Source of the DNA: Trichoplax sp. H2
Taxonomy: Eukaryota
Reading direction: 5' to 3'
Length of the DNA: 50,365 nt
Assembly: GCA_003344405.1 (NCBI GenBank)
Contig: NOWV01000010.1
Span: forward strand, 1,054,001 to 1,104,365
The position numbers and the translations under genes are program-made. The notes under the pieces were generated by a model. The model was not told the DNA's origin. It searched no databases and was given only the letters and a program-made list of their open reading frames with translations. Every line of letters starts with the position of its first letter. The stretch's first letter is position 1. Below are positions 533 to 36,839 of the stretch, piece by piece.

Positions 533-1888
533 ATTGTGTCTTGTAAATGGATCAAGTAATCGTGTCGTTATACGCACAATATGCATTACCATATTTGCTG
601 TAAACATGGAATGGATATATGCAACATTTGTCGCTTGAAGTGAAAGATTCGTATAAAATATGATACGATTAAATCGGTGTTCCGGTTTGAACTCTGTATT
701 ACTTGTTAAAGCTTTAAATAGAAAAAAGATCCTACTATCTTTAAAATTCAATTTTAAGATAACAATAAGCGAAGGAATTAGTGTAAAATGAGAGACACAG
801 TTAATTAAATCAATGTTCAGGTTTGGACTCTGTATTAATTATTCATTAAGGTCAATACTGAAATGCCATAAGGCCTTGCTACCGGTACGCTACACATTCA
901 CTCTTAGAAGTAATAGCTGTATTATTAACCATTCTCTATGGTCACATAGTATTTTTTAAAGACCACCTAATCTGAAGTTCAATACAGTCAGGAAGGCAAT
1001 AAAATGTGAAAATAACTTTATTAAAATATTAGCATCAACATTATACTAACTAATGTACTACTTGAAAGTATGCAAGTACAAGAAGACGCAGCCTAGTAAC
1101 AATGCTATGTGTAGCTTGTCGTTCGAGAATCATAGCTACGCGCGTGCAATCCTAATGACTATTTTAACACATAAGAATAATTTACACACTTTAGTATTAC
1201 AGTTCTAACTGTATATAAATTAGTCATCATGAGCTGACGTAATAAACGTTATAGAAGCAAGAATAAAGTAAAGTCATAACTTCTTTCCTTAAGGATGTAA
1301 CAGAAATGGTTACCTGAGTATTTAAATTATTATATAGCTTCAATCTTATTGATTTTATATCATCAATAATAAACATATGCGTTCCATTGCATATTAACTT
1401 AATATATTCGAGGAACGATAGTCAGTTAATTCTTGCCAAAAGCTGGTTAGGCAAATCTTATACAATAATTATCACATGATAAAATTAGTAAGTTTGATAA
1501 ATTGGACATTTCTGTTAGTTTCATAGAATTAGTACTGTAGCTTACCCGTTATCGTAACGTAAATATTAAGTAATTATTGAACGTAGAAATTCATCATGAA
1601 CTGATGAATTACAGATAGATTTTTATTGAAACAAATAGCACAATTTTAGATTTGAAACATTTTTAAGCAGAGAATGTACAAATAGTGTTCAATATTCATC
1701 TTAATTCTTGCTTGTTAGGTAGAATTTGGCATTATCGTTGAGTCGGAGTTTAATCACATTCGTCGATAACTGGAGTTTCTTAATTATACAAAGGCATAAA
1801 GAGTATGAGCTGAATTTTATTATTCAGCAGAGATCAATGCAGCCCTTGCATAGTTTACTCTTTCATTTGTTGTTCAACCATATCTTAC

Positions 1889-5223
<3,335 letters not shown>

Positions 5224-7290: not shown

Positions 7291-7409
7291 TTGTAGATGA
7301 GCTTGAGGTATCAAGGCTTGAGCTATCACAAACCGAGCGAGAACTTGCCTTGAAGAGATCTCAAAACAATTTCAGCTTGGCATCTTGTGCCGTTCTACTG
7401 GATTTCAAG

Positions 7410-10400
7410 ATGACTTTCATGAATGCAATGTACAACTTTTTCAATCGTCATCGCCGAAAAATTATCATTTCGTCAGCCATTGCTGGAGGTATGTATTGCT
7501 CAAGAATCGTTGATAAGGGACTGTGAACCGATTGCAATTTTATAGTTGGATGCATACCAATACTAGGCTCAAAAAGATGCCAATGCTTTTCTTATCCACA
7601 TGCAGTAATTCTATTTGTCTAATCGATAGCATTGTCCAATTAACTTACCATTCATTCATTCTATTATTATCCAGAGTCTTGTTGCATCATCTACGATAAT
7701 AGTACAACTACAAGATTCACCGTAGTAATAGGCAATCAAATCATAACGATGATAATACGAAGATGGATAGACTACGATCACTTATTCGAAAGCACGCAAT
7801 TGCAAATTGCGGTCCGTACACACTGACATACCTTAACAACTTTCAAAGTCTTTTCATCTTATATACATGTATCGAGTGTAGGCTTAGCATATCATAGATA
7901 CTCTATGTTGTAACCATGTCATAGTTTTGACTTAGTAGCGCAAGAAACACGGTATCATTATCTTAACTCCTATACAGTACACTGTAGATGCAGTAGGTAA
8001 AGTGGTGAAATAGACAGCAAGCAAGCGATCGAACGCTTTTACTATCAGTCTATCAACTTGAAATGCTCTGACCAAAGTCCAAAACAGTCCAAGCTCTTGT
8101 CATCATTATCATCCCCAGAATCTGCTCATTTAGATATCATAGATGATGACCGAGATAGATTAAGTCGATAAATGGATTGAAATGTTCACCTTGAAATGAA
8201 GTTGAAAAGGATAAACAGACACATTAGCTAAATGACATTTCTTATAAATATAGACAGTAATTTGTAGCACTGTATAGAAAACGGAACACTTGTCAATATA
8301 GGCAACGCATTATGAGATGTAAAACAGAAAACAGCATTTTTTTCTTATAAATACAGTACAAATAGTAATTTAAACTATTCAAGAAACTCGTCTATGCAGC
8401 CAACGTATTAGAACATGTAAAAAAGGATAGATTGTCATAGAACGAATCTGCAGCAACTTCACTTAGTTTCGTGCAATTTAATCCTAATAATGTAAGCTAG
8501 AAACCATAGGGGTCACTAGTGCAAAGCATGTCTTATAGACATCTCCTTATTTCTAGAGGAAATGAAGGTATAGCTGAAGCCCGTAAGATATACTTAATTA
8601 ATCGTACTATGAAGTATGTACTGTACAACAGCACTTTATCGGACACGATTTTGTATTGCTGCCACAGACCCTGACAAAAATCGAAGCAGGCTTTTTCTCC
8701 TAAAACTATAAAATAATCTCTCCATTATAATAAACTTGTTTCTCCATCTCATGACAGCTAGATACTAACAATTTAGGTACTATAGAATCTAATTTACAAT
8801 CCTAAATTAATAGCAATATATTTATAACCAAGGTGTTGTTGTCTTGGTCAAATATTCACAATGGCGATTGCAAAAATATATTGAAGGCGAAACAACGTTA
8901 CAAATGACACGAGCAAGGTATGTACAATTGATACGATCACAAAGTACCTTTTCAATAAGGGATTTAGTAATTAATTACTGTATTCGCCTATTCCAAAATT
9001 AGTAGTCACCGCTATACTGCTGGCGTAAATCGCTTCTTCTGTTACTTGATTAGGATATAAACCATTATATCCTAAATCTTATTCATCTTTATCGCTTTTA
9101 TAGGATGGAGAATCATTTTAACAACAATCAAAAGACTTGCCATTTAACAAGTAAAACTAATAGTAGTATTCATACTCTTATATCTATCTTGACAAGTAAA
9201 ATTACTCATATGAAATGTATGATACCTGACCAATTTTCCTGTAAAATTTACCTGCATATCTATTTTATATTCTTACGTATAGTTATATCATTACTGCCAA
9301 ATCTAAGTGAAGCAATCGAAAAAGAAATCAATTTGGATGAGTTAACAGAAAAACTGAAAGCAAGGTAGATTCAGAACAAAAATACTAGGTTAAATGGTGT
9401 CCGTTTATTTATCAGTAAAACACTTTGTGCAAAATTCTTATTTGATAAAAATGATTATCATTCCATAATCATTAAATTAATTTTTTTAATATTCATCCGT
9501 TAGACCTCCAAATCGTCTGCAAATCTGGGAAAATTTAAAGACGCTAAGTAATAAACTTGAACTGCTATTCTTTCGGTAGACAGGATATTGTATCTTAGAT
9601 ATGTTATATCCATTTATTACATAGCATTTACACAAGTGGTAACCAAGTTATACAGCGTATGCATGCTAACGATTTTGGTTCGTATTCAACTAAATATTAT
9701 TGGTGGTTATATGTACCTTGATAGCACAAATGATAAAGAGACAAAAAATGTAAGTTGCTATTATTGTAATCACTTATATGACAATAACTTAAAAGCATTC
9801 GTATGAAGAGAATTCTTCTAATTCATAATTGCAGGCAGATAGCGATCAAACTTACGCCTCTGCACGATTACAACAGCGCTATCTTTCCGTGGTCTATTAT
9901 TTATTGGGAGATGGTATTGCGCTAATATCAATAAAAGATTAATACAGTAATAGCCAAACGTTATCTACATTATATAACTCCAAATCAATTTGTTTATATT
10001 AGGAATGAAAGAGTTTATAAAAGTTGTGAAAGATACCATAAGTGATATTGTTACAAAGTAAGTTATATGAATATTCGAGATATTATAATACAACTATATT
10101 TAAGAATCTTTATACTTATGCAATACTGAGTACAGTAGATGACCAATAAGGATGATTGCCAATAGATAAAGTAAACTTGTAAATAAACTCATTTTCAATT
10201 TCGATGTCAATCAATTCAAACAGCTTAAGCCTAAAGAAAGAAGTATCACTTGGCGATATTAGTCAATTGTTTCAAAGAATAAGGATGGTTTTACATGATA
10301 AATTATGTCAAGCTAATCAAGATTCGAAAAGGTATAGTCATAGTTTACCCTATAATTTCAATTCCTGTTAATGTAATCAAAGATTCACTTACAATGTCTC

Positions 10401-11260
10401 ATTATATTCATTTTTGACACTATATCTAGCTTTTTAACCTCGTTCATGATACCTCCTAACGATGAAATAAGTGACTCGGTATTTAGCTATGCTTCACTAT
10501 GAAACTGACCTACCTTGTTAATCGTCAATAGTTTCTGCGATATTTTTGCAATCTTCAGGAATATGATATATTTTAACTAATTACTGAACCATTGTTTATT
10601 TACGTATAGTTTGAATCCCTTCAAGAGAATCAATTATTTAGTAAACTGATGTCAGAAACTAGAGATATGATAGAAAGTCAAGATTGCATTAAAGTAATGA
10701 ACCATTGTTTAGATTTTGGTTTTAATACTTTTATGGACAAGGTTGATGAGGCTGTTAAACAGCAAGTGACTTCGAAGAATATTGAGTAAGCTTCCTTACA
10801 TTCGATAACATAAATTAGTTATTATCAATTGTTACTTTTCTTGTAGTACTTTGTAATGAATCTTTATTTGATTACTATATTACAGAATTACTTTGGCAGT
10901 TGCAAAATTATTGCCAGTTGTAACGAGTCAACTTAAAGTCATGATGAAAGAATCAAGTAACACTTCCAATTCATTCTTGCAGGTATACAGTACTATTGTT
11001 TAAAGAATCCTATTTTAAACTTTTAGTAGCTATTAATGCCGTTAGAGATGGAATAACTTTAAATTCTTTGTGTTATTAATGCCTGTTACTAACAGTTAAT
11101 CAGATTAATTGTATGTAATTATGCTCAAAATACCCGTAAAATAAGCAGAGGTAAATTGTAATTCTTGATTACTTTTGAACAATTTTAGAAATTGATGGAT
11201 CACAAATTAATTGAAATGTTATCATTGAACATATATGAAGCATTTGCGCAGCCTATTTAA
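7410..11260 (+). CDS. PEX3: Peroxisomal biogenesis factor 3; 13 exons (approx. 7410-7488, 8833-8917, 9104-9150, 9283-9364, 9504-9547, 9625-9749, 9835-9913, 10003-10057, 10224-10331, 10430-10478, 10610-10785, 10886-10982, 11189-11260)
   Basis: The spliced product has [21 protein letters not shown] (N-terminal membrane anchor), [53 protein letters not shown] and the C-terminal NIYEAF. These are all PEX3 hallmarks. Confidence 0.95.
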
Positions 11261-11746
11261 AGAAAATGCACAATAAGGATATCATTATAAAATGTGTTAG
11301 ATGTTACAGCCCCATACGGAGAATTTACAACTTAATCTAAACATAATTTCGATTTTCGTATTGTAAACACATCTCCCATGCAATTATCAATGCCATTTTT
11401 TAACATTTCTTATCATTTATGTACAATCAACAAATGTATTAAGTCTATTATAAGAACTGATAGATTATACTCGTAAATGCAATGATGCGATCATAGCAAA
11501 TTCTTTTTTATTGCATATTACTAGTCATGTCTATATGACAATCGCCATAGTTTTATTTCTTCGCCCATAGCTAATTTAGGGTATGTTCAGAAACTATCTA
11601 AATAAGGTAATCTTATGGTACTACTGTAAACTCCATAAATCTTTCCACTACGGTGTATTTCTCTTAGTCGCTACGGTACATAAATATTTACTTGCAAAAA
11701 ATTTTCATTAATTTTCGATAGCACTATTATAAATGCAGTGACTACT

Positions 11747-12518
11747 ACTAGCTTATATCGCCCATGGTTATAAACTTTAATCATAATATTAATTATAACC
11801 GAGTGACCTATAAATGTATAATAAATGAATGATTAATTCTTTCAACACATTCTTTGGACTTCGAAAGGATTTCTTAAAACCGTGTTGCTCATTCTTATCA
11901 AACCTGTGNNNNNNNNNNNNNNNNNNNNGATTGGTTAGCAAATGTTTAGTTTTAAATACCTCTGACGGCTCTACGAAGCCTATAAATGATAGTGCAATTA
12001 GAAAATTTAGAGAGAGAGTAGAAGAAGATTTTATTTGAAGAACTTGTTGAATTTAAAAGGCCTTCGGGGTCGAATTGTCGTAAGTTAAAACGTTCTTCTT
12101 TTTGAAAGGTTGTTTGGTCGTTGACAGTTCTTAAGTCTGTCATTTATTTTAATAATACTTAAAGCTAAGTATTTGTAAGGTTGTTCGGTTTATACTTCTC
12201 TCCATTTTTGTTTTGAAATAAATTGTTGTTCGGTTATTTCCCCAAATTTTATTTGGTGTCAAAGTATTAGCGTTAAGTCGACCGGAGTGCAACGAAAGTA
12301 GAATCAAAGTTTGTTAAAGTTTCGTAGCTTGATCTCTACACATTTCATTTCATTACACTAGCTTATATCGCCCATGGTTATAAACTTTAATCATAATATT
12401 AATTATAACCGAGTGACCTATAAATGTATAATAAACGAATGATTAATTCTTTCAACACATTCTTTGGACTTCGAAAGGATTTCTTAAAACCGTGTTGCTC
12501 ATTCTTATCAAACCTGTG
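11747..12518. repeat. 162-bp near-identical direct repeat (11747-11908 and 12357-12518) either side of a 20-N scaffold gap (11909-11928)
   Basis: ACTAGCTTATATCGCCCATGG...TTATCAAACCTGTG occurs twice, with one T/C difference seen (11826 vs 12436). The first copy is cut exactly at the gap. Confidence 0.92.
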
Positions 12519-13121
12519 TTTGATTGAATATTAGAATATACGAGTAGTCCTTCGTAGTAGTAATCTAATGGAATACTACTTAATCCCAATTGCACGATAA
12601 TTTTAATGATAATGGCAACGAGCAGCCCTCATTTATTTTATTTAGTATAATGAACGAAAGCATAAGTGAAATGTTTAAGTAATGTAATATACTGCCTTTT
12701 GATTGTCCTATCCATTTTCATGTATTCTCATCAAGAAAGATCATTATGTTTCATTAACATCACACATGCAATTATTAGGCAACAATCAATCAAATGGTTT
12801 ACACATATATATATCCATTAAAGAAATGTAAATGATTTTAACATTTTATGAGATATGATTTTTACATCCTAGAGAATTTAAAATAAGTATCGTTAATATA
12901 TATATATACCTTATTTAATGTAGTAAACATGATCTTAGAGAGGTATTTTAAAATTCTAATGCCGCACTATTGATTTATTACTGTCTTCAATTGTATGCAT
13001 GAAAACTATGATATCAGAATGCGCGTAGTAGAATACTTTTCGTAATGTATGATCGAACTAGATTAATTCAGTGAACTAATTGAAATTACTTTTTCGTATA
13101 ACAGTATGTATTATAGCAAAA

Positions 13122-16100
13122 TTATGATCTGTTAGCCTTTTTCTTCTCATCCATCACTTCTCTTCGACAACACTTGGTAAAGGTTTTATGAAAGTCTTTA
13201 CATTTGTTCATTTCTTTAATTTCGTTTATATGTCGATTGATGCTAGTTTTTGATTCTAACTTCATTTTCTTAGTTGTAATCATATTGAATAATCTATCGA
13301 TACTGATAGATTTTAGATGACAACGATAGCCTTTCTTAGCAGCTAGGATACCCCATTTGCAGCAATTGCGAACTTTATTGACTAATCTTCTTTCATATGT
13401 TGTTAAAACGTCTTCCTCTTCATGTTTTGCCCCATGACCAGACGTAGCCATAGTAGGTGAACTTTTATTGTCTGCTGCTATTGCAAATTATATAAAATAG
13501 CAATAAATATATAAATAATATGTTTCAATTTAACGATTTCGAGTTGAAATAGACCTACTAAGATAATTCATAAAAAGAAAATTAAAGCTAAAATGCTTTA
13601 TTTAATTACTACCCGCTAGCATGGCAAAGTGAACAACACAAAGCATATCTAGTTATGTCCTGTTCGAGTCATAGTTTTATCCTAGTAAGTACAGCATACT
13701 ATCAAATTGATACCTATTTGATAGTAATCTGATAAGCAAATTTTTTAGCTACCATTTGTTTCCATATTCAATTTCAAATATTAAAAAGGAACAAATTCAG
13801 TACTCCAGACTTATAGTTGAATAAATTTTGAATAGACCCTAACATGTAATGAATTACATTTTTGTCACTGCAATTTAAAGAAGTAACCCTTACATCGTTT
13901 AATGGCTTTCTCATAAATATGAGCTAATACAGTAGCTTAACTAAATTGCAACATTCAAAACTTTAAAGCCTTAGGTAATACTGCTACGATATTAGATGTT
14001 CATTTGTTGAATTCCTTTGGTTGTAGTTTTCCTTTGCACTCGAACAAGAACTGAGATAATAATCGATTGCTATCCATAAATAGATTAAGTCCATTTTATA
14101 ATTTTCTGTTTAGTTACTGTAAGGATTAGTAAATGAAAGGACCAAGTTTTCTAGCCCTCGACGTACCTCGGATTATTATATTACACTTTATTAACTTTAA
14201 ATAGTTGCTCATTGATGAAAGATAGTTATATGAGATTTATCACGTGTTTGTACTGTATATCGGTAAAACTAGGATATTATAATGTTTACGGTAAAGATAG
14301 CAAATAGAGCGGTAATTCATATATTAGAATATGGTTAGTTCATCATATTCTGACTAGTAGAAATAATGTCTAAGTAACTACTGTATTAATTTCCATATTG
14401 GATTAATGATGGTCCGCTGTAAAATGCTGTTACTAATAATAATATGAATATGTATAAAATATGGTAGAATGTTGCTTTGCTGATTGCAGCTGTGAATGCT
14501 ACGCTACGAAAGGTATTAAGGTGGAAACTTAGATTATTCCAGTAATTCTTTCTAAAAGTGCTTAGAAGTTGTATTCCTCTAGAGTAGAGCTGTGCATACG
14601 TTGTCTTTGTATAAGATCTAGTAAAGTTCTAATTTTTATAAATTTTGAATTTTCGTGATTGCTTATATCACAATAGCATATCGGAAGTCTTTCTCTTTAC
14701 TAGAGATAGCATTACATTACTAATGTATGTTGAATTGAATGTTCAAAATATATCACGCTTATATATATAATCATTGGGACCATAATTTTATCTATGGATT
14801 ACTCGCAGTAGAGCTACTGTACTACCGTCCTTCATAAAGTAAACTTCTTTTCTAAATATTTTGTTTCTAAGAAAATCGGCTAGATACAGTAGCAATTACT
14901 ATTCCCTATTTTGAAAATGTATAATAGCGATGAATTATTTCTTAATTAAAATTCAATTATGCTTTGTATTGACGTGCAGTATAGTAGAATATTCACAGAT
15001 CTAGCGTATTTTAGATTTAAAATGTGATACTTTATGTCATCGGCAATCTATTTTTTGTGACTTTAACTTCGGAGATTAGAGTTAGCTTTATTTCTACAAT
15101 GAAAATTGCTTGTAAAACAGAAGTTAAGTTGTTTTCACTAGAATGTAATCCTACTCATAATTTATTCTATTTGATTTATGCGTTGCTTCAATATCAAAGT
15201 ATCAATCAAGCATATGTTGATCTTTAGTCTATATCGCTATACATAACTCGAACGTTTAACTTTAATATCTACCTTACAACGTAATCATGGTTGTTATGTA
15301 TAAATACGATATAATATCTCCTCAATAAAATGAATAAAGTGCGTATCTAGATAGCGTTTATTATCGTTAATGTCAACAGACTAGCTGCAATTCGTACACT
15401 TATCGTTATAGTAATATGATTACAATCTACTCTATCATGGCTAATTAATTGAAAAATATTACGTAAACTGAAACTTAATGAATCATAAAATATTTATACT
15501 CTATATTGTTACAGTTTTACGTCAATCTAATTAATGTTATGCGCGTACTCGGTCAAGGTCAACTATGTAATTTTTTATGTTCATATGAACTAATTAATTA
15601 ATGGCATAAAAACATGAAGTAATACGTAGGTAAGTACAATAGTTAATATATAAATAAAAATAAAATTAGACCAAACGGTCATTTATGTTACTCGTTTAAG
15701 GAATAATAAGATGAGATTTTAACACTAGTGCTTGTTCAATTTCATGCCAGCTAGGTACTGTACTGCGTATCTTTTGAACAAATAAACAGGCATGGTCATT
15801 GTAGTAGGTCATTGAATTCTAGCAATATCCGAAAATCTTATAATTTAAACTTTTATTTGAGTAATGAGGAAAAAAAAGTGTGAAAAATAACAATATTTAC
15901 TCACGTTATTTTTAAGTGAGTTAGAAATGATATTTAAGTGATAGCAGCTACGTGGATCTTTTATCTGCATAGCTTTGAAACTGATCAATAATAGCCAAAT
16001 ATCTCTTTGTACACATAAGTAAATAGTAATAATTCATCATGAAAGCAATTTCTATTGTCTTTCTCAGAAGTTTTTAAATACTGCACTATTTCATCTTCAA

Positions 16101-18710
16101 TATTGCAGATAAAATTATTATTTTATAATCCCATTAAAATCTAACTACGACTAAAAATCGCATTGAAATTTTAGCTCTAAAGGCAGATTTTCTATTATTG
16201 TTATCATATCACATATTCTCTTTTTGGGTATCAAGTAGAATATTGATAGGCATGCTTCCCTTTCCTTTTTTGTTAATTTGATAAATTTTCATCTACATAG
16301 GGTCTTGTCGATAGAATATTGTCGATTTTAAGAGTGATCGCTATATTAATCGTCATAACAATATAGTGCAGTTGAAAATTTATAAAAGCGATTTAAATTC
16401 AATTCAATGAAGTTGATTCATTATTTATCGATCTCGATCCCTAGACAAGTATTTATCAATTAATTTTTTACATCTGATTTCGTAGAAAGTATCAGTGGTG
16501 CATACAGTAATTTGATGGTGCTATTTTTCTCCTAAATTCATTATAATAATAAATATAATGTTAAATATTAAGCTCTCTCTATCAAAATGCAAAAATATGA
16601 TAATTTTTTCAATTTGCTAGCAATTAGGGCCATAAATTATTTCATCGTTTTCATTTACTAATAATCCATTCTATATTCTTATGCTGTACTTTTATACTTT
16701 ATTCTGGAAAGATGCTAGTCTACATGATAGCTATTATAACTGAATTTTTCAAGTAATAGATAGTTATAAGCCCCTTTTTTAAATAATTCTAATGTGCGAC
16801 ATCTTGTTTATAAAGTAAGCTCCATGAATAACTATTATATTGATAGAAATTGGACTCTCACCAAAGGTTACACAGAAAAGGAAATAAATGTTTTAACAAT
16901 GATGATAGTCTATTAATGTGCGTTTTAGTTGTGAAAACGAGTAAGAGGTGTTAGATTCGATGACGATCAAAGTACTAACGTAGGAATTAAGTAACATAGT
17001 CATGAAGTATTTTGGTAGTATTTCATTAGAAATAAGAAGCCCAAACATTTAATGATGAAACGTTGTTGTCACATCGCTTGGATATACAACAGATCTTTAA
17101 GACCGTATAAGTAAGGTAATATGAAGTCTTCTAGTCAATGATAACTAATTAAACGTTATATCATATTATAATAACTTATGATGTATATAAGTTTATAGTC
17201 ATGTTGGTGGGGAATTAATGCCTTGTATTTCACCATTAGATACTATAAACAAGTCATAAAATAACTAACTTGCACGAAAAATAGACTGTATAGCGTACAG
17301 TATGATCAATTTTCATGATTAGCAAACAGCGTGGATGTACATATCTATCATCATATTAGAAGAAAACAAAAGTTCCCATTTTAAGCACTAAAGAATAAAT
17401 GTATAAACACGTGATGAAAAACTATAAACGCAAGTTGGCGATAAGTTAAAATATTACAAATGACTGACAATAATGAATAGCATAATGTATGTGGTAAAAG
17501 GCTATAAAGTATTGTGTATGGTAAATTAATATGAAAAAGTCAGGGAATTAGAGTTGATCAAACCCATGGAGAAGAAGTCGATTTGTTGATTCTCATTACT
17601 CATTATAATTAAGGATTTGAATAGTAGGCGGGGCTAAATAAATAGTGATCATCTAATTTTTCTTCATTGAAATTAAAATTACTTTAGACGATTAACCTCT
17701 ACGAGAGACAGAAGTAAACTGTTGGATAGGCTTACCTAAACTAAAATAGTTGTAGTCAATCAATGCCTTAGAGATTTCGCTTTTTAAAGAGTTCCACAAG
17801 TAATCTTAACGATCATAGCTACCGTCGCAATAATGTAGACATAATAGCATATCCATTTTAATACCGTAAGATATAGATAAAAAGTGATAATTGAACACTA
17901 CCCAAATTGAAGGAGATTGTACATGTGCGTTTATATCTTTATAGACTATCTAAAAACGCTCCCTTATTATTTAGATTGACTATTTTGATGTAAACAATAC
18001 AAAAAATTTCATTACATATTAGTAAATTGTACAGAGTAAGTGCATATGTACAAGAGAGAGAGGAGAGAACATGTCTAAAAAGACTTATTCTGTTATCCGA
18101 GTTAACTTAGTGTGCATATTTAACAAATAAGAATATCTCGATTACTATATGTACCGTAGATGACGAGTACAAACTCGTTTGATTACTCAGTTGCTATATT
18201 CATTTTTACTTACTACTTGGAGCAATAAATTAAATAGGAAAGTTGAAATTGGTGAAAGAAAATTGTTAAATAGGAAGATTTTGTCATTATTACTGATAGA
18301 ATATTAGCTAGAAAGCTATCAAAATGATCTTTAGTATCTTTCGTCAGTTTAAACTTTAATTAAACGCTCTTGCTATTGGAAGTGGTATTCTGTAAGTATT
18401 TCTTAAAGTTAAAGTAATATAGAAACATTGAATTTTTGATTTCATAAGAGAGGGTAATAATTTGGTTAAAACTTGCTATATAGACTCATTTATCACTTAA
18501 AATGCTGTTATCAATTGTCAGATATTTTCTTATAAGAACTATTATACATGAAAATAAACTTAACCCATACTTATTCAGAGTAATCGTTTATTGTAAGAAA
18601 ATTAATAGCTATGATGAAGATAGTTTATATCTGTTCTTACCTTTGGCTAAAGTTGGTAAAGCTACGGCTACCATTATAGTCAATGCTAAAATTGTAAACG
18701 ATAGTTTCAT
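13122..18710 (-). CDS. Putative 141-aa secreted protein with an anaphylatoxin-like six-cysteine domain; exons 18710-18641 and 13477-13122
   Basis: Exon 1 is MKLSFTILALTIMVAVALPTLAK (signal-peptide-like) ending in G|GTAAG, phase 1. The exon 2 acceptor TTGCAATAG| is also phase 1 and in frame with the 109-aa ORF containing CCKWGILAAKKGYRC-x39-CKDFHKTFTKCC. Confidence 0.75.
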
Positions 18711-19739
18711 TTCGACGACAAAGAAATTGAAGAATAGATGCCTTGCAATTGATGGTAATCAATTTTTCTTGATTAGTAGTTAGTTTGCCAGATAGTACAA
18801 CTAATGTTGGCCTTATTTAGTATAAGATTAATTTCGAAAAAAGGACGAGGAAGAGAGCGATAGAGGGGAAAACTTCAGACTATAATTATGTAATGATCTA
18901 TCGAGTAAAGGGTAACCCGACTTCTTTTATTTACTGCCTTAATTGATCTAAAGTAATTATACTCGTATGATTTGGATCCTAGATAACACGTATACATATA
19001 CATATACAGTATATAGAAACTGTTATTGTTTTATTTCATGGCATGATCATGGTATTATTTATTTTATCGATTGTGTCTCGACAACACTGCAATCTATTTC
19101 CTTCATCAACTTATAGAATAGATAATAAAATCAGCTATTCTAAGACATACAACATGATTGGACGATTATTGACCACAAAACAAGTTTAAAATAATCATCC
19201 GTAGTCCTTATCAGTAACGAGAACCCTAATTAGCCTATTGGATAAAAGTCTTGACATCGCCTATTGAACAAAATTAAGATGCAACTGGAAATAAAGCCTA
19301 TCCTATAAACACCAGTAATACAATGCGAATAATTTGCATTGTATATCTTTTAATTATTGTACGGTCTTATGTAGTCTTATGCATATATATTCATTTTGAT
19401 GTATTTCCAAGCAAATAAAAATCAATATTGTTTTATTCACGATAGAGAAGTTAATTGCAGGAGGTGCAGATTTCTTGTCTTTTATGTTTTCAAAGATAAA
19501 TAATACGTTTGTACATGCTTAAACTAGAAACACAATCTAAACATGGACTTCCTTACTAGCATTAAGAGTAGAAGTTTTTTGTATATATTTTAATATCAAC
19601 AGAGCAGGTTGATAATGATGAATGTTAATTAACTTCCAGCATGCTTGGACTGCAACATAAAATCAAACCATGTAATGTTCATTGGTAAACTAGTATGTAC
19701 ATAAATAAATCCTTTCTTGCATGATTTTTTTATCATTAA

Positions 19740-21920
19740 GAGTTGAGGCTAAGTTAGTTTAACCTCCATTCTATAAAGGTTATGTATTGTTCCATTTCCA
19801 ACATTAGATCGATTCGTTCATTATTAATTGGCCAGATGACAGATGAAATAAATTATACTCTTTATATCCGATTGAGTAGAATAGAAGTTGGCAGATATTA
19901 CTAATAGCATTGGTATTTGTAACATGATAAAGGATTTAATCCCATGAGAGAATCTTTGCATCATTCATGGCATTGCATGCAGATTGATATCAAGACGTGA
20001 TCTCATATCACGATTTTAATTAATAGAATGTAATATTGTACATAAGGACTACAAATGGCGCCGAATAATCAGTTGGATCTCCAGCCTTGCCATTTATTAT
20101 AAGATCGGCGCCTTTATGACTCACACCAATATATGCCATCGATGCAACAGTATGACATGGAAAAATTGGATAATAGAACTCGATCACGGTAGAACTAGAA
20201 TTATTATCTTCGTTCCAATTTTGATTTCGGTATGTAAATAAATCAAACTTCCGTTTCAACGATCCTTAAGATGTTCGAGTTAAGGGCCATTTCTAATCAT
20301 AGCTATCATTTGAATTGTTGGAATCTACTGCACAGGCAAAATAGACCATGCTATAGCGTCAATCTATATATACTTGCCAATTGGATAATTAAAGAATTAG
20401 AAAATGTGTAAAACAATATACCAGGTGAATAAGTATTAATATTGTGTTTTTACCATCAGACTTGGGGCGTATTACGGTTTATACCCATACTATTATTTTA
20501 TTCATAATTAGGGATAATTAATTATGCGCGTAACGAGTCTTATCCAATATCTCACTATCAATTTTAGACGTTCTTATTAATAATATTCCCCCCAAAATAA
20601 TTAAGGAATCATTTCATATCATATCCGGTGGAAGAAGAACAGTGAATGGTCTTTCATACTTTAAATAATGTTGATTAATAAATTAGCTGTTGATCATTTA
20701 CTCAATGGGCAAATTAGAAGATCTTAATTTCTAACGGATCTTGACAAAGTAAACTTCTCATTATTTTAATAGCAACTACTAATCAGCATTCAATTCCGTA
20801 AACTTAGTTGTTTATTGTGTACCTCTAAAATCTCTATAGATTAACAATCGTCTACAATATGATGCAGCTACCTGGGTAAATATTACCAAATCAAATACGA
20901 TGTTATCTTCCGCAGTATTGGTTGGTTATTTTCTTCTGACGTATAATAACCTTGTGAAATTAAGAGTTGCTTCGATAAATCAGTAAACACAAAGTGATTT
21001 ATCGTTCTCTTTACCGTGAGCGTTTGTTCTACTATTAATAATCAAATCATTAATGTTCTTTCATTAAAAAGCTGAGAGAAAACGATGCTATAGCGTTTGA
21101 AGAAAAAAGTACTGAATTCTATTGTTTTTAAAGAGTAAATTATATGACAATTAACAGTTTGATTCCAATACAACGTTATAAATCTATTCCTATTGAAAAT
21201 TATTTTAAATAAAACTGAACTTACCACTATATATCTGCGTTCATTACGTACTCTATACATAACTGCCAAAGAAATACTTTCTGAGAAGTTAAAATGAGGG
21301 TGATATAATTAATTCACAAATTGGGGATGGGCTAAATTATTTCTATAGCTAACGTATCGTTAATTTAGCATACTAATTAATTCATTGGTTCTTTATAGGA
21401 TATTTACCTTTTTGATTTGGTAGCTTTTAAACTGAGTTTGCGTCCAATTACGATATGGTTATCGTTACGATTAATTTTATATGATACGTGGTAGACAGTT
21501 TATTTTGAAATTTAGAACGTATGCGTCCCGAATTACGGTAACCATCCACTTCAGATTTTTAGATAGCGCCCAAGTTCTCATTAACGATTAGCCATTCAAT
21601 TAAATTCTTTCCATACGGTATGGTAGTTAATTACGATTATCGTATTTTCTTCAAGGGCTATAAATATTCGTTCCTAATTTTATCCGTAAAATTTGAATTT
21701 ATTAATTGAATTCTCTTGTCAGTTATATTTAGAATTTGTTTCGTAATGTTCATCGTCCTTCTGTCACCTATTGAGCAGTTCCTGCTTGCAGATAGGACAT
21801 TCTTAACTGAAGTTTACCTGTGCAATGAGCAGTATATAATTTGTGATAGAGTGGCCAACTCGACTAATATATTCTTCACTCAGCGTATAGCTTGGATCAG
21901 AAAGCTTCCGCGTTGAGATT
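19740..21920 (+). pseudogene. Possible heavily decayed intronless LRR-containing GPCR-like sequence
   Basis: Stop-riddled fragments in plausible order: PPFYKGYVLF, LRR-like NIVFLPSDL, LSILDVLINNIP and MGKLEDLNF, then PCEIKSCFD..*FIVLFTV and hydrophobic IFRICFVMFIVLLSPI. This is pattern recognition only; there is no intact frame. Confidence 0.25.
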
Positions 21921-23254
21921 CGCTATCGAATACTAACGTAGACATTAGTAACATTAGGATTAGTATTGCAATCCATGCGACAATAGAAAGCTTACAGTTA
22001 TCGCATCGTCTTCAGAAAGTTATTTACAACCATGTTTAATAATACCGGTCTTTACTATCCCATGGTAACCTGGTGTATAGCGTGCACATAATTATCCTCG
22101 CATACCACTGCTTGATATAGCAATTACGATAGGATAATAATTATAATTGGTAACAAAACGAGATGACAGATAGAATGATTTAAAAAAATTGGACAATTAA
22201 CAAAGGCTGGCGTTAGTCGTAATTAGATATATTGTGCTGTAGATTGTAGGTAAGTCTAGATACTGATAGGACTCTTGTGCTCTTCAGTCTCTAGTGTCTC
22301 TTTGCGAAGCAGATTGCATGCGAATACGGTCTGCAGAAGAGGAAAGAGAACTAACAACAATAAAAACAAAAACAACTACCCTAGCGATAGCCCTCGCAAA
22401 ATTAATACAAGTAGACAGTTCTCACATAATATCGTGATTTACATCAAAATTATTTTATTGCGCATGTATACGAGCTTATTGAAAATTTGAATTGTTTACT
22501 ACACTCGCAGTCAAGTCTTATACACTTTGAAGAACTCACTATAATTGATTGGAAATAAAATAGTAAATACCAGGGACTATATTAGGAAGGAGGAAAATAT
22601 TAATCGAGCAATCCTTGTAAATTCCCCCATTCTATAATCACGCAATAGAACGATCTGATGGATAAAATGTTGTACCATGATTCTGCATTAAGACGAGTAA
22701 AGCTCTTCTATTCTATATACTAGGTATTGTTTATTTGTTTTACAGGACACATTGAAAAATGGCCATATCTTCATTGATACCATTTTCGTCTTTTTATTCT
22801 CTTTGATAGATCAAGAATAATCAAAGATATTGTCTTGTATTAAGCTATAGAATGTTTTTAAATGCAAAATAGTTTGTGTATTAGAGATTTGAATTGTAAG
22901 GTATTGGAGAGAATAAAGCAACTTACGGTTAGACAAGTGAACTGAAACAGTTTATTATTCCACTGTGTGTACAATGCTACAGCATATCACAGGTGCATCA
23001 TGTATAAATATCATAGGTCGAAAAGCAAATTATAAACAACACTTAATGCTTATATCCGACTACCGCATACCTTTGAAGCTGTTATTTAAACACCTGACTT
23101 AGCTACTACCTGAATATCGTGAAATAAAATGTGCAAGTACTTGCAGTACACGAAGTATAACGAGCGTGGGTTCTACTATTTATTTTTTATTTTGAGGCAA
23201 GATGGTGTTCCAAGGTCCGTCAGTCGCCTACAGTGGCCAATAGGACTGATAGAG

Positions 23255-23436
23255 ACTTAAGTCAGCTGATTTTTTAATCAATAATGACGCGATATTTTTA
23301 GCTGTCAGCATCTTTGACTTATTATGCAGACTGCCATCAGTCTCTTTTCCACACAGGTGATCCCTGTGGAAAGTTATGTCAGCCTATTTTCTAATAATGA
23401 TGCGACATATTAGCTGTCAGTCCCTTTGACTTATTT
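23255..23436. repeat. Two diverged copies of a ~60-bp unit
   Basis: GTCAGCTGATTTTTTAATCAATAATGACGCGATATTTTTAGCTGTCAGCATCTTTGACTTATT versus GTCAGCCTATTTTCTAATAATGATGCGACATATTAGCTGTCAGTCCCTTTGACTTATT. Confidence 0.7.
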
Positions 23437-23644
23437 TATTGCGAAGTAGAAAATAACTTGAGTACTAAGGTAGTGTATTACCCAAATCGAGAATTAAGAG
23501 TCAAACTACGTATAAAAATACATAATCTAATATAGCCTAACGTATAATTACAACTAATGAGTCAGTGATCACTCGTGCCGAAAAGAGAGACAGAGACAGA
23601 TGACCTACAAAACCCAAGTTAGGTATTTTTCAGGTTTCATTTGG

Positions 23645-24605
23645 CATAATACTTTATATAATATAGTCGGTTAATAGAGTAAAATCCAATCTACGGTATA
23701 ACAAATGAATTCCGATAGAACGACCAAGGAGTAATAAAAGAACTACCGTCTAGAATACCTTATTGTTATTGAAACAAAATTGAAAAAAAAATTAAAAATT
23801 GATACATAGCAATGGCCGTATATACGCGCTGTGTATTCTACCTCACACGTGTATCATAGCTGAGTCCAATACTGTGTCCTTACTTCTCAGTAATACTTTG
23901 TATAATTAATGTAGACGCTTAATAATAGAATAAAATATAACTTACAGTACAATAAATGAATTTCTATAGGATGGCCAGGAAAAATAAAAGAACTGCTATC
24001 TAAAATATCTTATTGTTGTTAAAATAAAATCGGCCATCAAATTGCTAGATAATGCATAGCAGCGGCTGTCCATAGTGTATTCTATCTCGCATGTGTATTA
24101 TACCGGAGTCCAATACTGTGCCCTCAGTTCTCAGTAATACTTTATGTAATTAATTGATATAGACGGTTAATAGAAGAAAATATAAGTTACAATACAGTAA
24201 ATGAATTTGGATAGGATAACCAAGGAGTAATTAAAAGAACTGCTATCTAAAATATCTCAATATTGTTAAAATAAAATCGGACATCAAATTGCTAGCTAAT
24301 GCATAGCAACGGCTGTCCATAGTGTTATATAACCGAGTCCAATACTGTGCCCTCAGTTCTCAGTGATACTTTATATAATTAATTGATATAGACGGTTAAT
24401 AGAAGAATATAGTACTTATAGTACAATAAATGAATTTTGGATAGGATAACCAAGGAGTAATTAAAAGAACTGCTATCTAAAATATCTTAATATTGTTAAA
24501 AAAAGTCGGACAAAAAATTGCAAGCTAATGCGTAGCAACAGCTGCATATTGAGTGCACATAGTGTATTCTACCTTGCACGTGTATCATAACCGAGTCATA
24601 CACTG
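23645..24605. repeat. Tandem repeat of about four diverged copies of a ~230-250 bp unit
   Basis: The anchor AATGAATT..ATAG.A..CCA.G.....TAAAAGAACT.C..TCTA.AATA recurs near 23704, 23956, 24200 and 24429. GAGTCCAATACTGTG.CC...TTCTCAGT.ATACTTT also recurs. Confidence 0.92.
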
Positions 24606-27597
24606 TTTTCTGAGTGCTCCACTCAGAAGCAAAAACACGCACATAACTAAGGCTATATAAGAAAATGAACAGGCAGTGAAAATATCATATCGTTATTCCA
24701 ATCAAAACATGACGCAGGTTATTGCACGACGCAGTCGTTATGCAATAGTAAATCCAGGTACCGGGTCCGGTACCTTTTATCGAGAGATCTGTCACGATAC
24801 GAAACGTAGCTGAAATTGGACTGGTGATTTCAGCTAATTACGGTAGCAACATGGAGCAGCAGCACTCAATTTCCAGGTAATGGATTGCGAACCAAGAAGG
24901 GATTATTAAGCCCATTCATTTCAGGAAATTACCGCAAAATTGCAAAACTAGAACCATTTACCTGAGTATTTCTTATTAACAGGTTATTATTTGGATAAGC
25001 CGTTAATGAAAATACGGATAATTGTCATTGTTTGAGAAGTTAATATTACAGGTTGATGAAATTATATAGGGCTGAATTGTTGTAGTTTAAATGTTATTTT
25101 CATACATATTAGTGCGAGACATTATGATACTAATTGTCAAGCTGTTGTTGTAAGTGCATAAAATTAATGAATAAGATTCTATTTCATATTAATTTAGATA
25201 AGATTTATCTTATAGAAATTATACTCGTACATTTTAGATGTAATAGATTACTTGTTTTGCATATATGGGTTATAATTAATTAGTTACAGAGGGTCATGAA
25301 ACTGGCGTAACAGAAACGTTTTTGAAATAAAACATTTTATTTCATTGTAAAAGCGATTTTGGAGTAATGAATTGATTTAGGATGAAACCTGGCCGAAAAT
25401 AATACCTGATGATAACCAGGAAGTCGGTAGCGTAGGTGCCGAGTATGATATACAGTAGATGTAAAAGTCTAGATAAATTTAATTCTTTGGCCAATAATTA
25501 TCGAGCTTTATGGAAAATTTAAAATCAACATATAAGGAAACTGCTGTAAGTTATGCTAGTTGATAAAGTCTACGATTTTTCTGAAAAAATACGCCATGCT
25601 AACTATATATCTTGAAATAGAAAATATAAATCCAAATAAAAACATAGATTTTTCGTTATTTAGATATATTACTTTCACATCCCTACCTTGTTTATATGCA
25701 ATGTATGATCTTGCTGGTCTAATAACTTAACGTTTCTAAAAAAGTTATCATTCTTTTGATTGTAGATTTGAAAAAAGCAAATCATACGCAGTTTCCTATA
25801 TAAGTTATATGAAAATAATAAATATGGGTATTGAATGCCTTTAAGTAGCTCTAATGCTGATACAGTTAATATTCAGCTAAAACGTTTCAATTTAGCTGCT
25901 GAATTGATATGAATAAGAGGGTAATTTAGTAAGTAAGGACATTGCAGAAGATAATATCTCGTCTGCAACATGATTCGCTATTTCTGTAATTATGATATTC
26001 ATCTAAGGGCTCGAGGTAAGTTTTACTCAGCATCGCTCACAAGGTAAACAGTGTCGTGCATTTTCGCTGATTTGATTCTAATAGCAATTTATGAATTGAG
26101 GATATATTAAGGGTTGCTATAAAATCGTAAAATCGCATACGCAAATATATAGCCAAATCGCAACGTTACCAGCATTCTATTTTATTTTCCAGATAGTTTT
26201 GTAGCTAATCAATTATTTTACTTTGTCAGCATCGATAATTAACATTATTAAAATGGATTAATATTATTAATACAATAATTACTCATTTACTTATTATTCA
26301 ATTTTAAAATGGCAGTCTTATGTACTTATGATGACTCACAAAGTAATAAAAAGAATCATTGTATTAATTACCTATCTTTTCGCTATAGTACTGTACTGCA
26401 CATCATTTGCATATGAATCCTGCAAATAGTTTACCTAAATATTGCAAATATTGAACTTTACCCAGAATATCACTTAGACAAGCGGTTGATTGACTAAAGA
26501 TATTTCAGATGATTCAATTAGTCATTTTTATTGGTATAATTACTATTTATATCAAGAGAGTGCTACGCATGGATGATGTGTAATAAGATTTTAATGCAAG
26601 ATATAATTGATAATAGGAAACGTTATTTAAATTTAGTATTTACAGACCAGTAAAGTTTTAACAGTGATACAATTTCAAAATGTTTATTATAATATTTAAA
26701 TAAACCTGAGCTATTCCTACAATCTATTTTATCATCTATGCAGCAGCCTAAATAGTGATATCTAAAAACATGTAATCAGTTTCCGACTACGATAAACACA
26801 TATTCTGTTTGTTCTAATAAGTTCATATACACAACGTCATTGACCATAAAATAAAATCTGTAAGTACCTCTAATGACGGTCAGATATCATGCATAGCAGA
26901 GATAATATCTTGGCGACACGACCATAATGAAAAAATTTCGATTTCATTATGAGCGTGAAATATAGGACCAATTACTTCAATATATAATATAATCTATTCT
27001 TTAAATGAATTTGCTATAAAAAGTATTTGACATACGTATGTCTATACTGTAATACTCTATCTTTAAATAAGCAGACGCAAAGGAATACTTAAATTAAATA
27101 TTAGTAAATGGAGTGGTAGTAGAATTAATTTAAAATATTTAGTTTTATATCTTAAATAAGGATGAATTTACGTAAAATTCTTTTATGGTACCAATGAATA
27201 AGACCTTATCTTTTTACTCATCTACTCGTACTTAGCAAATCTAAAGTCTGACAGTGTTACTTGGCTCTGGAGAATTAATAACTCTTCCAATATTGACTGA
27301 GCGATAATGAAGATAGATATTCTGGTCATATCAGTTTATTAATTTGATATATATTTAAGATATTGACGCAGTTAACCATACGTTTTGTCCATTTACGATG
27401 CAAAACTATAATAGAATGATAGATGACCTACGTCAATTCTTAATTTATGCTTATTATTTCTAATCGATGTAAAGCTAAAGCATATGGGCAAGCTTTTGTT
27501 CCCTTATCGCGTCTAACATACATTTATATCAGTCATCGACAAACATATGTTTCATATAAATTGATCAGACTGTCAGGAAATTTTAAACATAATCACA

Positions 27598-30500
27598 ATG
27601 GCGGCTAGTAGAACCATCAATAGTTGGGTTTTTCTAATCATAGCTCTTTCATTCCTTGTACAAACTAATATTCACTCTTCTCAGGCTGCAGTAATATTTG
27701 ACATCGATAGCAATGTATCTCAACCTCTACCAACAACGGATAACGTAAGTTGAACAGTATTAATAAAAGGTTTCACTGAATGGAAGTATATGCTTTCAAT
27801 TCGAATGTGTTAATGTCATCATTCTTATTACTATTAGTATTAATCTTTTATTCCGTTTACTTAATCGATCGGCTTAGTTTTAGCGTATTGACGTTTAAGC
27901 ATAATTGGATCATCTATTTTCCACAAAAAAGAAAAACTTTATTGCAATCCGACATCATTTCATCTATTGGAGCTATTGAAGCTGCACAAATTAGAAATAT
28001 TGTCAACAATAAATCGGAGTTACTTCTTATTGATTAGCTTAAATGCCGACGATAATGTACCTTATGTATCCATTAGATGTAATCAGCTGCACAGTACAAT
28101 GTTGACAGAATGTCAAACAGCAATAATTTGACTTCACATTAATTATAAAAAATTTTCTACATATTATATTAAATATTATCCATCAGCCATATCGACTATG
28201 ATTTGTCGCTCTAATAAAAATGATTACAATTTTTTGCTCAAAGACAAGTGGTGGTGCTGGTGATACTTGCTACCAGATGAGACATAGCTGGTTTCCCTGT
28301 GCTAATAACGTAAGCAATTAGTTGACTATTTCGTAAAAAGTAAGAGACGAAGCAAATATTAATAGCACCGCTGCAAGATTTGTTAATGATTATAAAATTA
28401 GCTCCAGTATTTATAAAAATATATAGAATATCATGAAGATTTTTGTAAGACGTTCCAGTATTTCTTGTTTAAAGTTTGAAAGACTGATTATGAAGCTAAT
28501 ACATGACTACTTTATAGATTCCTGGAAATTTGATTTTAATGGTCTTTTATGGCACGATATTGATAATGGCAGCTAAATTAATTTCAGGTATGGAAGGATA
28601 AAATACTGTTTTAATTATCGTATGAAGAGTGTACGATTATAATACCTGACATAGAATACATAATTAATCTGCCTCATCTTAAATCTGGTCGATCAATTAC
28701 CTATGCTTTGTGAGCTTATCAAGTTAGGTTCTCAGAATACGATTAGTTTCATAAAATAATACAACATTTTATTATATTTTGTTATGGGAATCATGTTTAC
28801 ACAATCTGATGTACATAACATATTAATTAATGTATTTTAACAGATGGAGCAGAATTGTTGTTAGATTTAGGATTGCCAGCCAGCATCATTGGTAAGTGAG
28901 ATCTATTGAAGTTGCAGAATCATCATTACCTCATAATATTCGTATATAACATACCGTAATAACATAGTAATTTAGAAAGCGAATTTGCGAAAATAGATAA
29001 TATAAGCATAATAAATGATAATAATAATGATTTAGGACTTTATAACAATTAGGTGGGTTGGTATTGCCACTACTAGGAGCCATACCTGATGCAGTCATGA
29101 TTTTAGTATCTGGATTAGGACCTAAAGAATTAGCGCAAAGAAAAATAAGCGTAGGAATGGGGTATGAATTTTAGTTTACCGATAAGGCTGAAAAGTTTAG
29201 AACAGAGAAAAATACGAAGATGAATTGAACTTGATAGTATTTACAAGCTATTGATAGAAATAAGCAAATGTTAAGTTAATGCTGGACTCGTTCTGTTTGC
29301 TCATGAACTAATTTCTCAATGATTAATTCTAGAGCATTGGCTGGTAGCACAATTATGTTGCTAACACTAGCTTGGGCGGGTAGTTTAATTATTGGCAGGT
29401 GTGATTTAGGCGAAGACGGTAAAGCAATCGAAAAAACGGGCGCTGATAAATTTAGCCTAACCCGCCAGGTATTCAACTTGAACTACTAGATGTTGCTCTT
29501 ACCTAAGATTGATGATCGTTTCGTGTCTTTTATCTTTCTTGAATCAGCCATAAATGAAATCTATAAATATCCTTTGTTATTTTAGGGAGTTACCGTTATG
29601 AGTGATGTCAAAGTTGGTGTTATTGTGATGGTTTTAACATCTCTATCCTACCTGTAAGCTCTATGTTGATATGTTAATTAATTTAGATGCTAAGTAAAAC
29701 GCAAAATCTACCTCTATTTCGATTGTTATACAGTAGTATTTTCAAATTATTAAACAAATTAGAATTTGATTTATAGTTAAGGGTTTAAGTTAGGTTTTAG
29801 CTTTCTTGACTGATTAAATAATCGCCAATGCTATGCAATATTTCAATATCTTCTATTTATGATCCAGCGTTGTGCAAACTGCTGATTGGGTTTATGGTCC
29901 GAGCAAAGTAGGGCCTCAACCGGCTTATATTCGCTACTGTGCTCTAGCAACAATGATTATAAGCATTATCAGCTGTATTGTTAACATGGCCTATTTGGTA
30001 AATACTGTGTTAAATTTATTTTTTTAGCTATGATAGCAAAAACTCAGTTTTATGTTTGATAAATACTCATTCAATTGGATAATTTAGATATGGGATAGTA
30101 AAGCTGCAGAAAGAAGGCAGCAAAGACGTCATGAAGAAATGTAAAATGATTAAGTTGAAACTATTAATGATTACTCATAACGTATTTAAGATTGTTGTTG
30201 CTTGAATTCCAACTGAATGACAGTTATCATTGAAAATAGGCTGAAAAGAAAAGTAGTACAAAAATTCATTCTGAATATGACCGCTTCATTTACACAGCCG
30301 TCCAAAATAGGCGATGTTGAAAGAGCACAAGATCATAACACTAAGGTAGCTGGTACAAGCCAAGCTAATGAGGACGAAGAATCTACGAATGAGAAAAGCC
30401 GATTGGTTCCTCCTGCAGCTGGTGTGTATAGAATAAGGCTAAATTTATATTAACCTAGTCTTTTCAGTCAAGTTTTACTGTTAAAAGTAGCAAGATGTCG

Positions 30501-36680: not shown

Positions 36681-36717
36681 TTTTCTTTAGCAGCGATGGA
36701 AGAGTTGACCGTTTTTT

Positions 36718-36729
36718 TGCGCATGCGTA
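36718..36729. promoter_or_regulatory. NRF-1-like palindromic site 38 bp upstream of the COX5B ATG
   Basis: TGCGCATGCGTA is an 11/12 match to the NRF-1 consensus TGCGCATGCGCA, in an otherwise AT-rich window. Confidence 0.6.
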
Positions 36730-36839
36730 CCAGAAGGAGCACGGACAATCACTAGCAGCAGTGCCCAACCCCGGTACTCGTCCCCGGGCTTGAGCACTGG
36801 CCTAACTCTACTGTGGTCGGATCCCATCGAGGTCAAACG

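Follow-up and report, generated by a model that had tools for sequence, protein, structure and literature searches.

A two-exon gene of Trichoplax sp. H2 encodes a free-standing six-cysteine protein that may be a long-insert relative of the anaphylatoxin module

Can an anaphylatoxin-like domain make up an entire secreted protein, and what would such a protein do in a placozoan? The question is raised by a locus of Trichoplax sp. H2 (GenBank assembly GCA_003344405.1, contig NOWV01000010.1, positions 1,054,001 to 1,104,365), a stretch of 50,365 nucleotides hereafter called the window. The original prediction, made from the letters of the window alone, had proposed here a small secreted protein consisting of a stand-alone anaphylatoxin-like domain, hidden by a 5.2-kb intron and possibly processed by a convertase into a signalling or defence peptide. 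We find that the gene is transcribed and spliced as proposed, that its product is a complete protein, and that its six-cysteine core is conserved in a small family. The resemblance to the anaphylatoxin module is partial, and we lean only slightly towards true kinship.

RNA contigs and their translation place a spliced gene of two exons on the minus strand, encoding a protein of 141 amino acids. Its features are the following.

18711-18927, minus strand: untranslated 5' portion of exon 1, as far as the X8 RNA contig reaches (the true start may lie further out)
18641-18710, minus strand: coding part of exon 1, a 23-residue signal peptide and the first base of codon 24 (from translation and hydropathy)
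13478-18640, minus strand: intron of 5,163 nt, GT..AG, phase 1 (joint 13477/18641 in X4 and X8; splice contexts)
13122-13477, minus strand: coding part of exon 2, in frame (from translation)
13365-13477, minus strand: spacer and start of the predicted first helix, residues 24-61, with EEED (from translation and model)
13386-13391, minus strand: RR pair in the spacer, not conserved (from alignment)
13167-13364, minus strand: six-cysteine core of 66 residues, a candidate long-insert anaphylatoxin-like domain (conserved in P0004, L137 and L055)
13122-13166, minus strand: basic C-terminal tail of 14 residues and stop codon (from translation)
12614-13121, minus strand: 3' untranslated region, with AATAAA at 12979 and 12642 (X8 record 28 ends at 12614)

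Four sequencing runs were aligned over window positions 10500-24500 for splice joints. The junction from 18641 to 13477 is present in contigs of two of them, X4 (study P2) and X8 (study P3), whereas X18 and X19 cover the gene partially and their contigs lack it. X4 is recorded as an RNA run. That X8 is RNA too is a guess, favoured by its contig skipping a GT-AG intron. The decisive contig is X8 record 28 (1,148 nt), which covers 18927-18641 and 13477-12614 with start, stop and both untranslated regions, and ends 28 bases beyond the AATAAA at 12642. Since this one contig holds both untranslated regions and the whole 141-aa frame, the protein stands alone. None of the other nine joints listed in 10500-24500 touches exon 1 or exon 2, and a splice-context scan found no strong donor site within exon 2. 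The intron, the in-phase joining of the signal-peptide exon to exon 2 and the junction itself are thereby confirmed by contigs from two studies; the larger multi-exon protein that the original prediction had kept in view was not seen. GenBank already lists the product (P0006) among the hypothetical proteins of Trichoplax sp. H2; taken with the complete transcript and a published table discussed below, this bears out that an early-branching animal has here a small secreted protein that stands alone.

The acceptor at 13472-13480 is a triple in-frame NAG run (13478, 13475, 13472), of which the contigs use the first AG; use of the second or third would remove one or two alanines. Much of the intron 13478-18640 is present in X4 at a depth below that of the exons, representing unspliced RNA or library DNA. 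A repeat at 14362-14632 lies inside it.

The cysteine spacing of the protein is CC-x12-C-x39-C-x9-CC, exactly as predicted, and a search with a relaxed form of this motif finds one match in the window and none in 200 shuffled windows. Hydropathy peaks at 2.87 at residue 7, with nothing above 0.82 past residue 35. Residues 24-141 have an isoelectric point of 9.8 and a net charge of +14, and the 66-residue core holds 16 K/R against 5 D/E. The basic domain of the prediction is thus retained, whereas the acidic segment said to precede it is no more than weakly acidic (net -2 over residues 24-55). The gene is single-copy, a genome search matching only the protein itself; the searches, which found no paralogue, were exon-wise and loose, so that absence is not proven.

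The closest relative is P0004 (104 aa), which exhibits 65-68% identity to the window protein (P0002) and keeps all six cysteines. Published orthologue groups (PMC10580291) unite the Trichoplax H2 gene with single genes of T. adhaerens and Cladtertia H23 in OG_3364. Word-index searches with P0002 and P0006 returned only P0003, which is the same protein, and P0004. A phmmer search over 1.84 billion representatives returned P0004 and a repeat protein, P0005, rejected as a chance match, and no longer relative; none was found either among 3,361 candidates of 206-2,000 residues, which is weak evidence. In the ESM Atlas the nearest clusters were unrelated, with no usable named match.

More distant members were sought in metagenomes with a degenerate DNA pattern (CC-x2-G-x3-A-x5-C, a gap of 40-50 codons, F-x2-CC), which used one codon choice for the first cysteine, so that further relatives were likely missed. 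The pattern occurs at 114 metagenome loci at least; 16 of the matches listed are in frame, three of these with a stop. Exactly six cysteines are found in two of the 13 stop-free in-frame matches among the loci listed, L137 and L055. Their basic core, CC-x12-C-x38/41-C-x11/12-CC, reproduces features that lay outside the pattern: the fourth cysteine stands 12 or 11 residues before the last CC, and a stop follows 14 (L137) and 13 (L055) residues beyond it, so that all four members carry a tail of 13-14 residues. The cores were then scored with the eight pattern positions hidden. L137 reached z scores of 4.1 against P0002 and 4.6 against P0004; L055 reached 0.9 against P0002, 3.5 against P0004 and 2.1 against L137; the remaining 11 stop-free cores stayed at 1.9 or below. 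A profile of the two placozoan-type sequences run against 3,892 open reading frames ranked L137 first (E-value = 3 × 10-6) and L055 second (E-value = 0.002), the next match being at 0.42. Searched back against the genome, L137 retrieved only this gene (E-value = 0.0045, 33% identity). L137 is a single-exon frame of 149 aa with a hydrophobic N-terminus and occurs on 20 contigs.

By these sequence comparisons L137 is firmly a relative of the window protein. L055 is a probable but weaker one: it lacks its 5' end, scores low against P0002 and gave no match when searched back against the genome. The Gly, Ala and Phe residues of both were fixed by the search pattern and are not independent evidence. 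At 999-1023 (minus strand) L055 exhibits a candidate phase-1 splice acceptor ahead of the spacer, the contig ending before any upstream exon; this suggests that L055 shares the layout of a signal exon and a mature exon with the window gene. The G+C content at third codon positions is 0.50-0.51 in L137 and L055 versus 0.31 in the window gene, and that of the flanks 0.36-0.38 versus 0.26. A peptide-pattern scan of prokaryote genomes (90 stretches) found no relative of L137. Because the base composition differs and no prokaryote relative of L137 was found, the two sequences probably come from non-placozoan animals, and the unnamed family probably extends beyond Placozoa. Peptide-pattern scans of metagenome contigs (355 stretches) and viral contigs (62) found no relative, and the DNA pattern gave no stop-free in-frame match in 38 viral loci.

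Within the genome, a loose pattern gave 271 matches versus 104 in a reversed control, of which 30 were inspected, and a tighter pattern gave nine, all inspected. L042 and L008 looked promising and turned out to be non-coding repeat; L041, a frame of 32 residues, lacks the second half of the pattern. Two dispersed non-coding repeat families (e.g. L012, L017, L024, L030 and L031; L042 and L008) explain part of the excess.

Is the core an anaphylatoxin domain? The order CC..C..C..CC is found in all four members, as is CC-x12-C, which for L137 and L055 was set by the pattern. Gly three residues beyond the first CC and Phe three residues ahead of the last one occupy the positions of the anaphylatoxin consensus, and in the window protein and P0004 they were not selected by any pattern. 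Six conserved cysteines are the stated hallmark of the domain (PMC8960428). In mouse fibulin-2, whose S427-G545 region has a crystal structure (PMC11220139), the modules read CC-x12-C-x12-C-x6-CC and CC-x12-C-x9-C-x6-CC, CC-x12-C occurring in modules 1 and 3; the disulfides join C1-C4, C2-C5 and C3-C6, and the CC belongs to a helix and Cys3 to a loop, with Cys4 close to where the following helix begins. The model of P0002 predicts helices at 26-47 and 93-115 with cysteines at 38, 39, 52, 92, 102 and 103 (P0002 numbering), so that here too the CC would be part of a helix and Cys3 of a loop, and the last three cysteines would fall within the second helix or at its beginning, a placement matching the fibulin-2 pattern in a model whose mean predicted local distance difference test score (pLDDT) is 48. 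Both fold models, built from two or three sequences, have this mean score. With them, VIA-align matched at best generic helical pairs (Z = 6.0 and 6.7), Foldseek gave nothing at E-value ≤ 0.001, and no anaphylatoxin chain was listed, the models being too poor to inform on the fold.

Several results speak against kinship. The C3-C4 spacing is x38-41 and the C4-C5 spacing x9-12 in the four members, compared with the canonical x9-12 and x6, and the cores measure 66-70 residues compared with the 36 positions of the Pfam model (PF01821, ANATO). ANATO returned no row at E-value ≤ 10 for P0002, its halves, P0006, P0004, L137 or L055, a null to be read with the facts that the HMMER filters drop weak matches and that a long insertion splits the domain. 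No C3a, C5a or fibulin chain appeared at E-value ≤ 10 in the PDB sequence searches, in which monellin, LUSH and a thioesterase (E-value = 0.1-3) were rejected as chance matches. Pfam and NCBIfam gave sub-threshold rows only, such as Conotoxin (E-value = 0.07) over the N-terminal 65 residues. No ANATO or fibulin match above cut-off was found in the genome, the searches being exon-wise and loose and absence not proven; the sole weak ANATO match, L002, is off-frame, over another reading frame, and three weak Fibulin_C matches look like cadherin repeats.

The anaphylatoxin-like domain of the original prediction is therefore a plausible reading only: CC-x12-C and the predicted cysteine placement fit fibulin-2, whereas the other spacings and the Pfam and PDB searches do not. 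On present evidence the protein cannot be filed as a member of the anaphylatoxin-domain family. Weighing both sides, we give a slight preference to the view that the core is related to the fibulin-type module, stands by itself and is longer by about 27 residues between Cys3 and Cys4. The best-surviving alternative keeps the family and the secretory role but holds the fold unrelated, CC..C..C..CC having arisen convergently in a new helical disulfide fold. Two non-canonical spacings out of three in every member, and the silence of the profile, sequence and genome searches, speak for this; the exact CC-x12-C in four of four members, the Gly and Phe kept in the window protein and P0004, and predicted helix and loop positions that match fibulin-2 module 1 speak against it. 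We consider convergence a substantial possibility, though not the one that we expect.

Fibulin-1 and -2 share with the window protein the cysteine order, CC-x12-C and secretion, but they carry three fused modules ahead of EGF repeats and a C-terminal domain, whereas the mature window protein consists of one module and nothing else, the stop codon in the transcript coming 14 residues after the last CC. Sequence similarity to fibulin is not detectable. C3a, C4a and C5a resemble it in cysteine order, in basic helical character and in the shortness of the tail that follows the last CC, and may also do so in acting as free soluble ligands. They are cut from a thioester protein, whereas the window protein has its own gene with a signal peptide. 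A conserved C-terminal Arg is a hallmark of C3a-type fragments (PMC8960428); the final residues of the four members are S, S, G and Q, and their tails have neither a motif in common nor a terminal Arg. According to PMC6321704, placozoans lack C3/C4 and have of that family only two CD109-type genes.

The proposed convertase site fared less well. The pair at the YERR position is RR in the window protein and L055 and KN in P0004 and L137, and it lies inside the predicted CC-bearing first helix; cleavage at RR is for both reasons not a family trait. The basic pair that is conserved lies within the core, as AA followed by two basic residues.

What might the protein do? In Table S5a of PMC10580291 the H2 gene is an unnamed candidate with a signal peptide, no transmembrane segment and, for the signature of short neuropeptides, the label 'nosignature', its orthogroup being labelled 'wSP_nTM'; its top fold change, 6.5, is in peptidergic delta cells. 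In T. adhaerens the orthologue scores 0.556 in the peptidergic-delta module; in Cladtertia it scores 0.676 in the pan-peptidergic module, which also holds vesicle genes such as synaptotagmins. The published tables thus link the gene to peptidergic cells consistently across three species, with modest specificity. Several entries in the same source (PMC10580291) weaken the link: no listed member of its module scores lower than the T. adhaerens orthologue, the H2 gene belongs to no module, and some peptide precursors reach fold changes of 500-1,100 in Table S5a versus 6.5 here. The fold-change column of that table may moreover cover peptidergic types only, a restriction that the module table does not have. 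Table S5a records no mass-spectrometry peptide for the gene, so that the search for a peptide suggested by the original prediction is negative in that table; short-peptide mass spectrometry would presumably miss a 10-kDa disulfide-bonded product.

With its signal peptide, lack of a transmembrane segment and peptidergic expression in the published tables, the window protein has features of a peptide precursor. It resembles placozoan neuropeptide precursors and arminin-like antimicrobial candidates (PMC10580291, PMC12013895) in being small, with a signal peptide, no Pfam domain and a link to secretory cells. Neuropeptide precursors differ in carrying an amidation signature and repeated short peptides and in their higher specificity; the window protein has neither the signature nor a short peptide, its RR is not conserved, and it exhibits instead a conserved core in which three disulfides are predicted. 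A signalling role, one of the two raised by the original prediction, is likely in view of the peptidergic-cell modules. We propose that removal of the signal peptide would leave a mature protein of about 118 residues, secreted, basic and mostly helical, which peptidergic (neuron-like) cells would release intact, as a folded protein with three disulfides and not as short cleaved peptides. It would then act as a local paracrine ligand at a cell-surface receptor, and sulfated glycans or mucus may retain it through its basic surface. We put this proposal close to, and just short of, an even chance.

A different use of the same product would be structural. The protein could be a carrier or component of the secretory granule or of an extracellular coat, binding glycans and forming dimers, with no receptor to engage. 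The company of synaptotagmins in the Cladtertia module (PMC10580291), the low cell-type specificity, the lack of a processed peptide and the strong positive charge are in keeping with this, as is the fact that the anaphylatoxin region of fibulin-2 is a dimerisation unit (PMC11220139). The assignment of both Trichoplax genes to a single peptidergic subtype, delta, is not, and a small, single-domain, single-copy protein would be typical of signalling ligands. We therefore rate a granule or coat protein as improbable.

Less probable still is a cationic antimicrobial or defence protein freed from its pro-segment, comparable to the antimicrobial side of C3a. A net charge of +14 to +16, amphipathic-looking helices and a short acidic patch with RR ahead of the core recall such proteins, and placozoans do make antimicrobial candidates with acidic propeptides (PMC12013895). 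Those candidates, in the same source, are top-expressed genes of the ventral epithelium, whereas this gene maps to peptidergic modules; its pro-segment is barely acidic, its RR is replaced by KN in half of the members, and its sequence is absent from three text supplements of that paper. The C3a-like or defence role of the original prediction is accordingly unsupported: placozoans are without C3, the family has no conserved C-terminal effector motif, and the modules concerned are peptidergic and not those of fibre or ventral-epithelium cells.

A phase-1 intron after a signal-peptide exon, as here, is typical of shuffled modules. That the gene is only a fragment or exon of a larger fibulin- or C3-like protein, in which such modules are normally embedded (fibulin-1/2, C3/C4/C5; PMC8960428, PMC11220139), is nevertheless largely refuted, and scarcely credible, given the single RNA contig with start, stop and both untranslated regions, exons free of any other listed joint, the lack of a strong donor in exon 2, stops 13-14 residues after the last CC in all four members, no longer relative among the 3,361 candidates (weak evidence) or the 1.84 billion representatives, and placozoans lacking C3/C4 (PMC6321704).

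Downstream of the gene and convergent with it lies the PEX3 gene (about 7400-11870, plus strand), with a Peroxin-3 Pfam match on 10610-10786 and spliced joints at 10785/10886 and 10980/11187. Positions 1889-5223 (minus strand) hold PCMT-domain exons followed by a SOCS-box exon, the layout of PCMTD-type proteins. The segments 11929-12358 and 14362-14632 are multi-copy repeats, several-fold to about a hundred-fold above flank depth and with many loose ends, and the stretch beside an N gap near 11900 recurs at 12399-12530, possibly an assembly duplication. At about 27565-32140 (plus strand) a signal-peptide-like exon and hydrophobic exons resemble the EF-hand-bearing sodium/calcium exchanger-like proteins of plants; the single exons have no Pfam match. 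Exons at 35215-36790 (minus strand), short pieces without a Pfam match, resemble cytochrome c oxidase subunit 5B, and 40688-40993 (minus strand) is a FERM-domain exon (Pfam FERM_M).

The gene model and the unnamed table row were already known; the two distant relatives and the wider family are new. In the literature searched, which left most subscription journals outside, we found no description of the protein, of the wider family or of a stand-alone anaphylatoxin-like protein, and ten supplements of a sea-anemone matrisome paper (PMC12549020) hold no 'anaphylatoxin' entry. Placozoans coordinate their behaviour through peptidergic cells without neurons, and most of their hundreds of G-protein-coupled receptors (923 counted in PMC10580291) have no known ligand, while ligand hunts in these animals have so far centred on short peptides. 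The protein may belong to a class of protein signals of early animals that such hunts have overlooked: it is conserved and is predicted to be folded and disulfide-bonded. If the anaphylatoxin fold holds, it bears on the origin of a module otherwise described inside C3/C4/C5 and fibulins; if the fold fails, an unnamed conserved secreted family is still left. It is a speculative and rather unlikely extension that the family, with the window protein as the first member to be noticed, represents free-standing anaphylatoxin-domain hormones of non-bilaterians, released from neuron-like cells and predating the role of C3a and C5a as ligands of G-protein-coupled receptors. Were it true, the module was an independent signalling ligand in an animal without complement, and the ligand role of C3a and C5a would be built on an older signal that stood alone.

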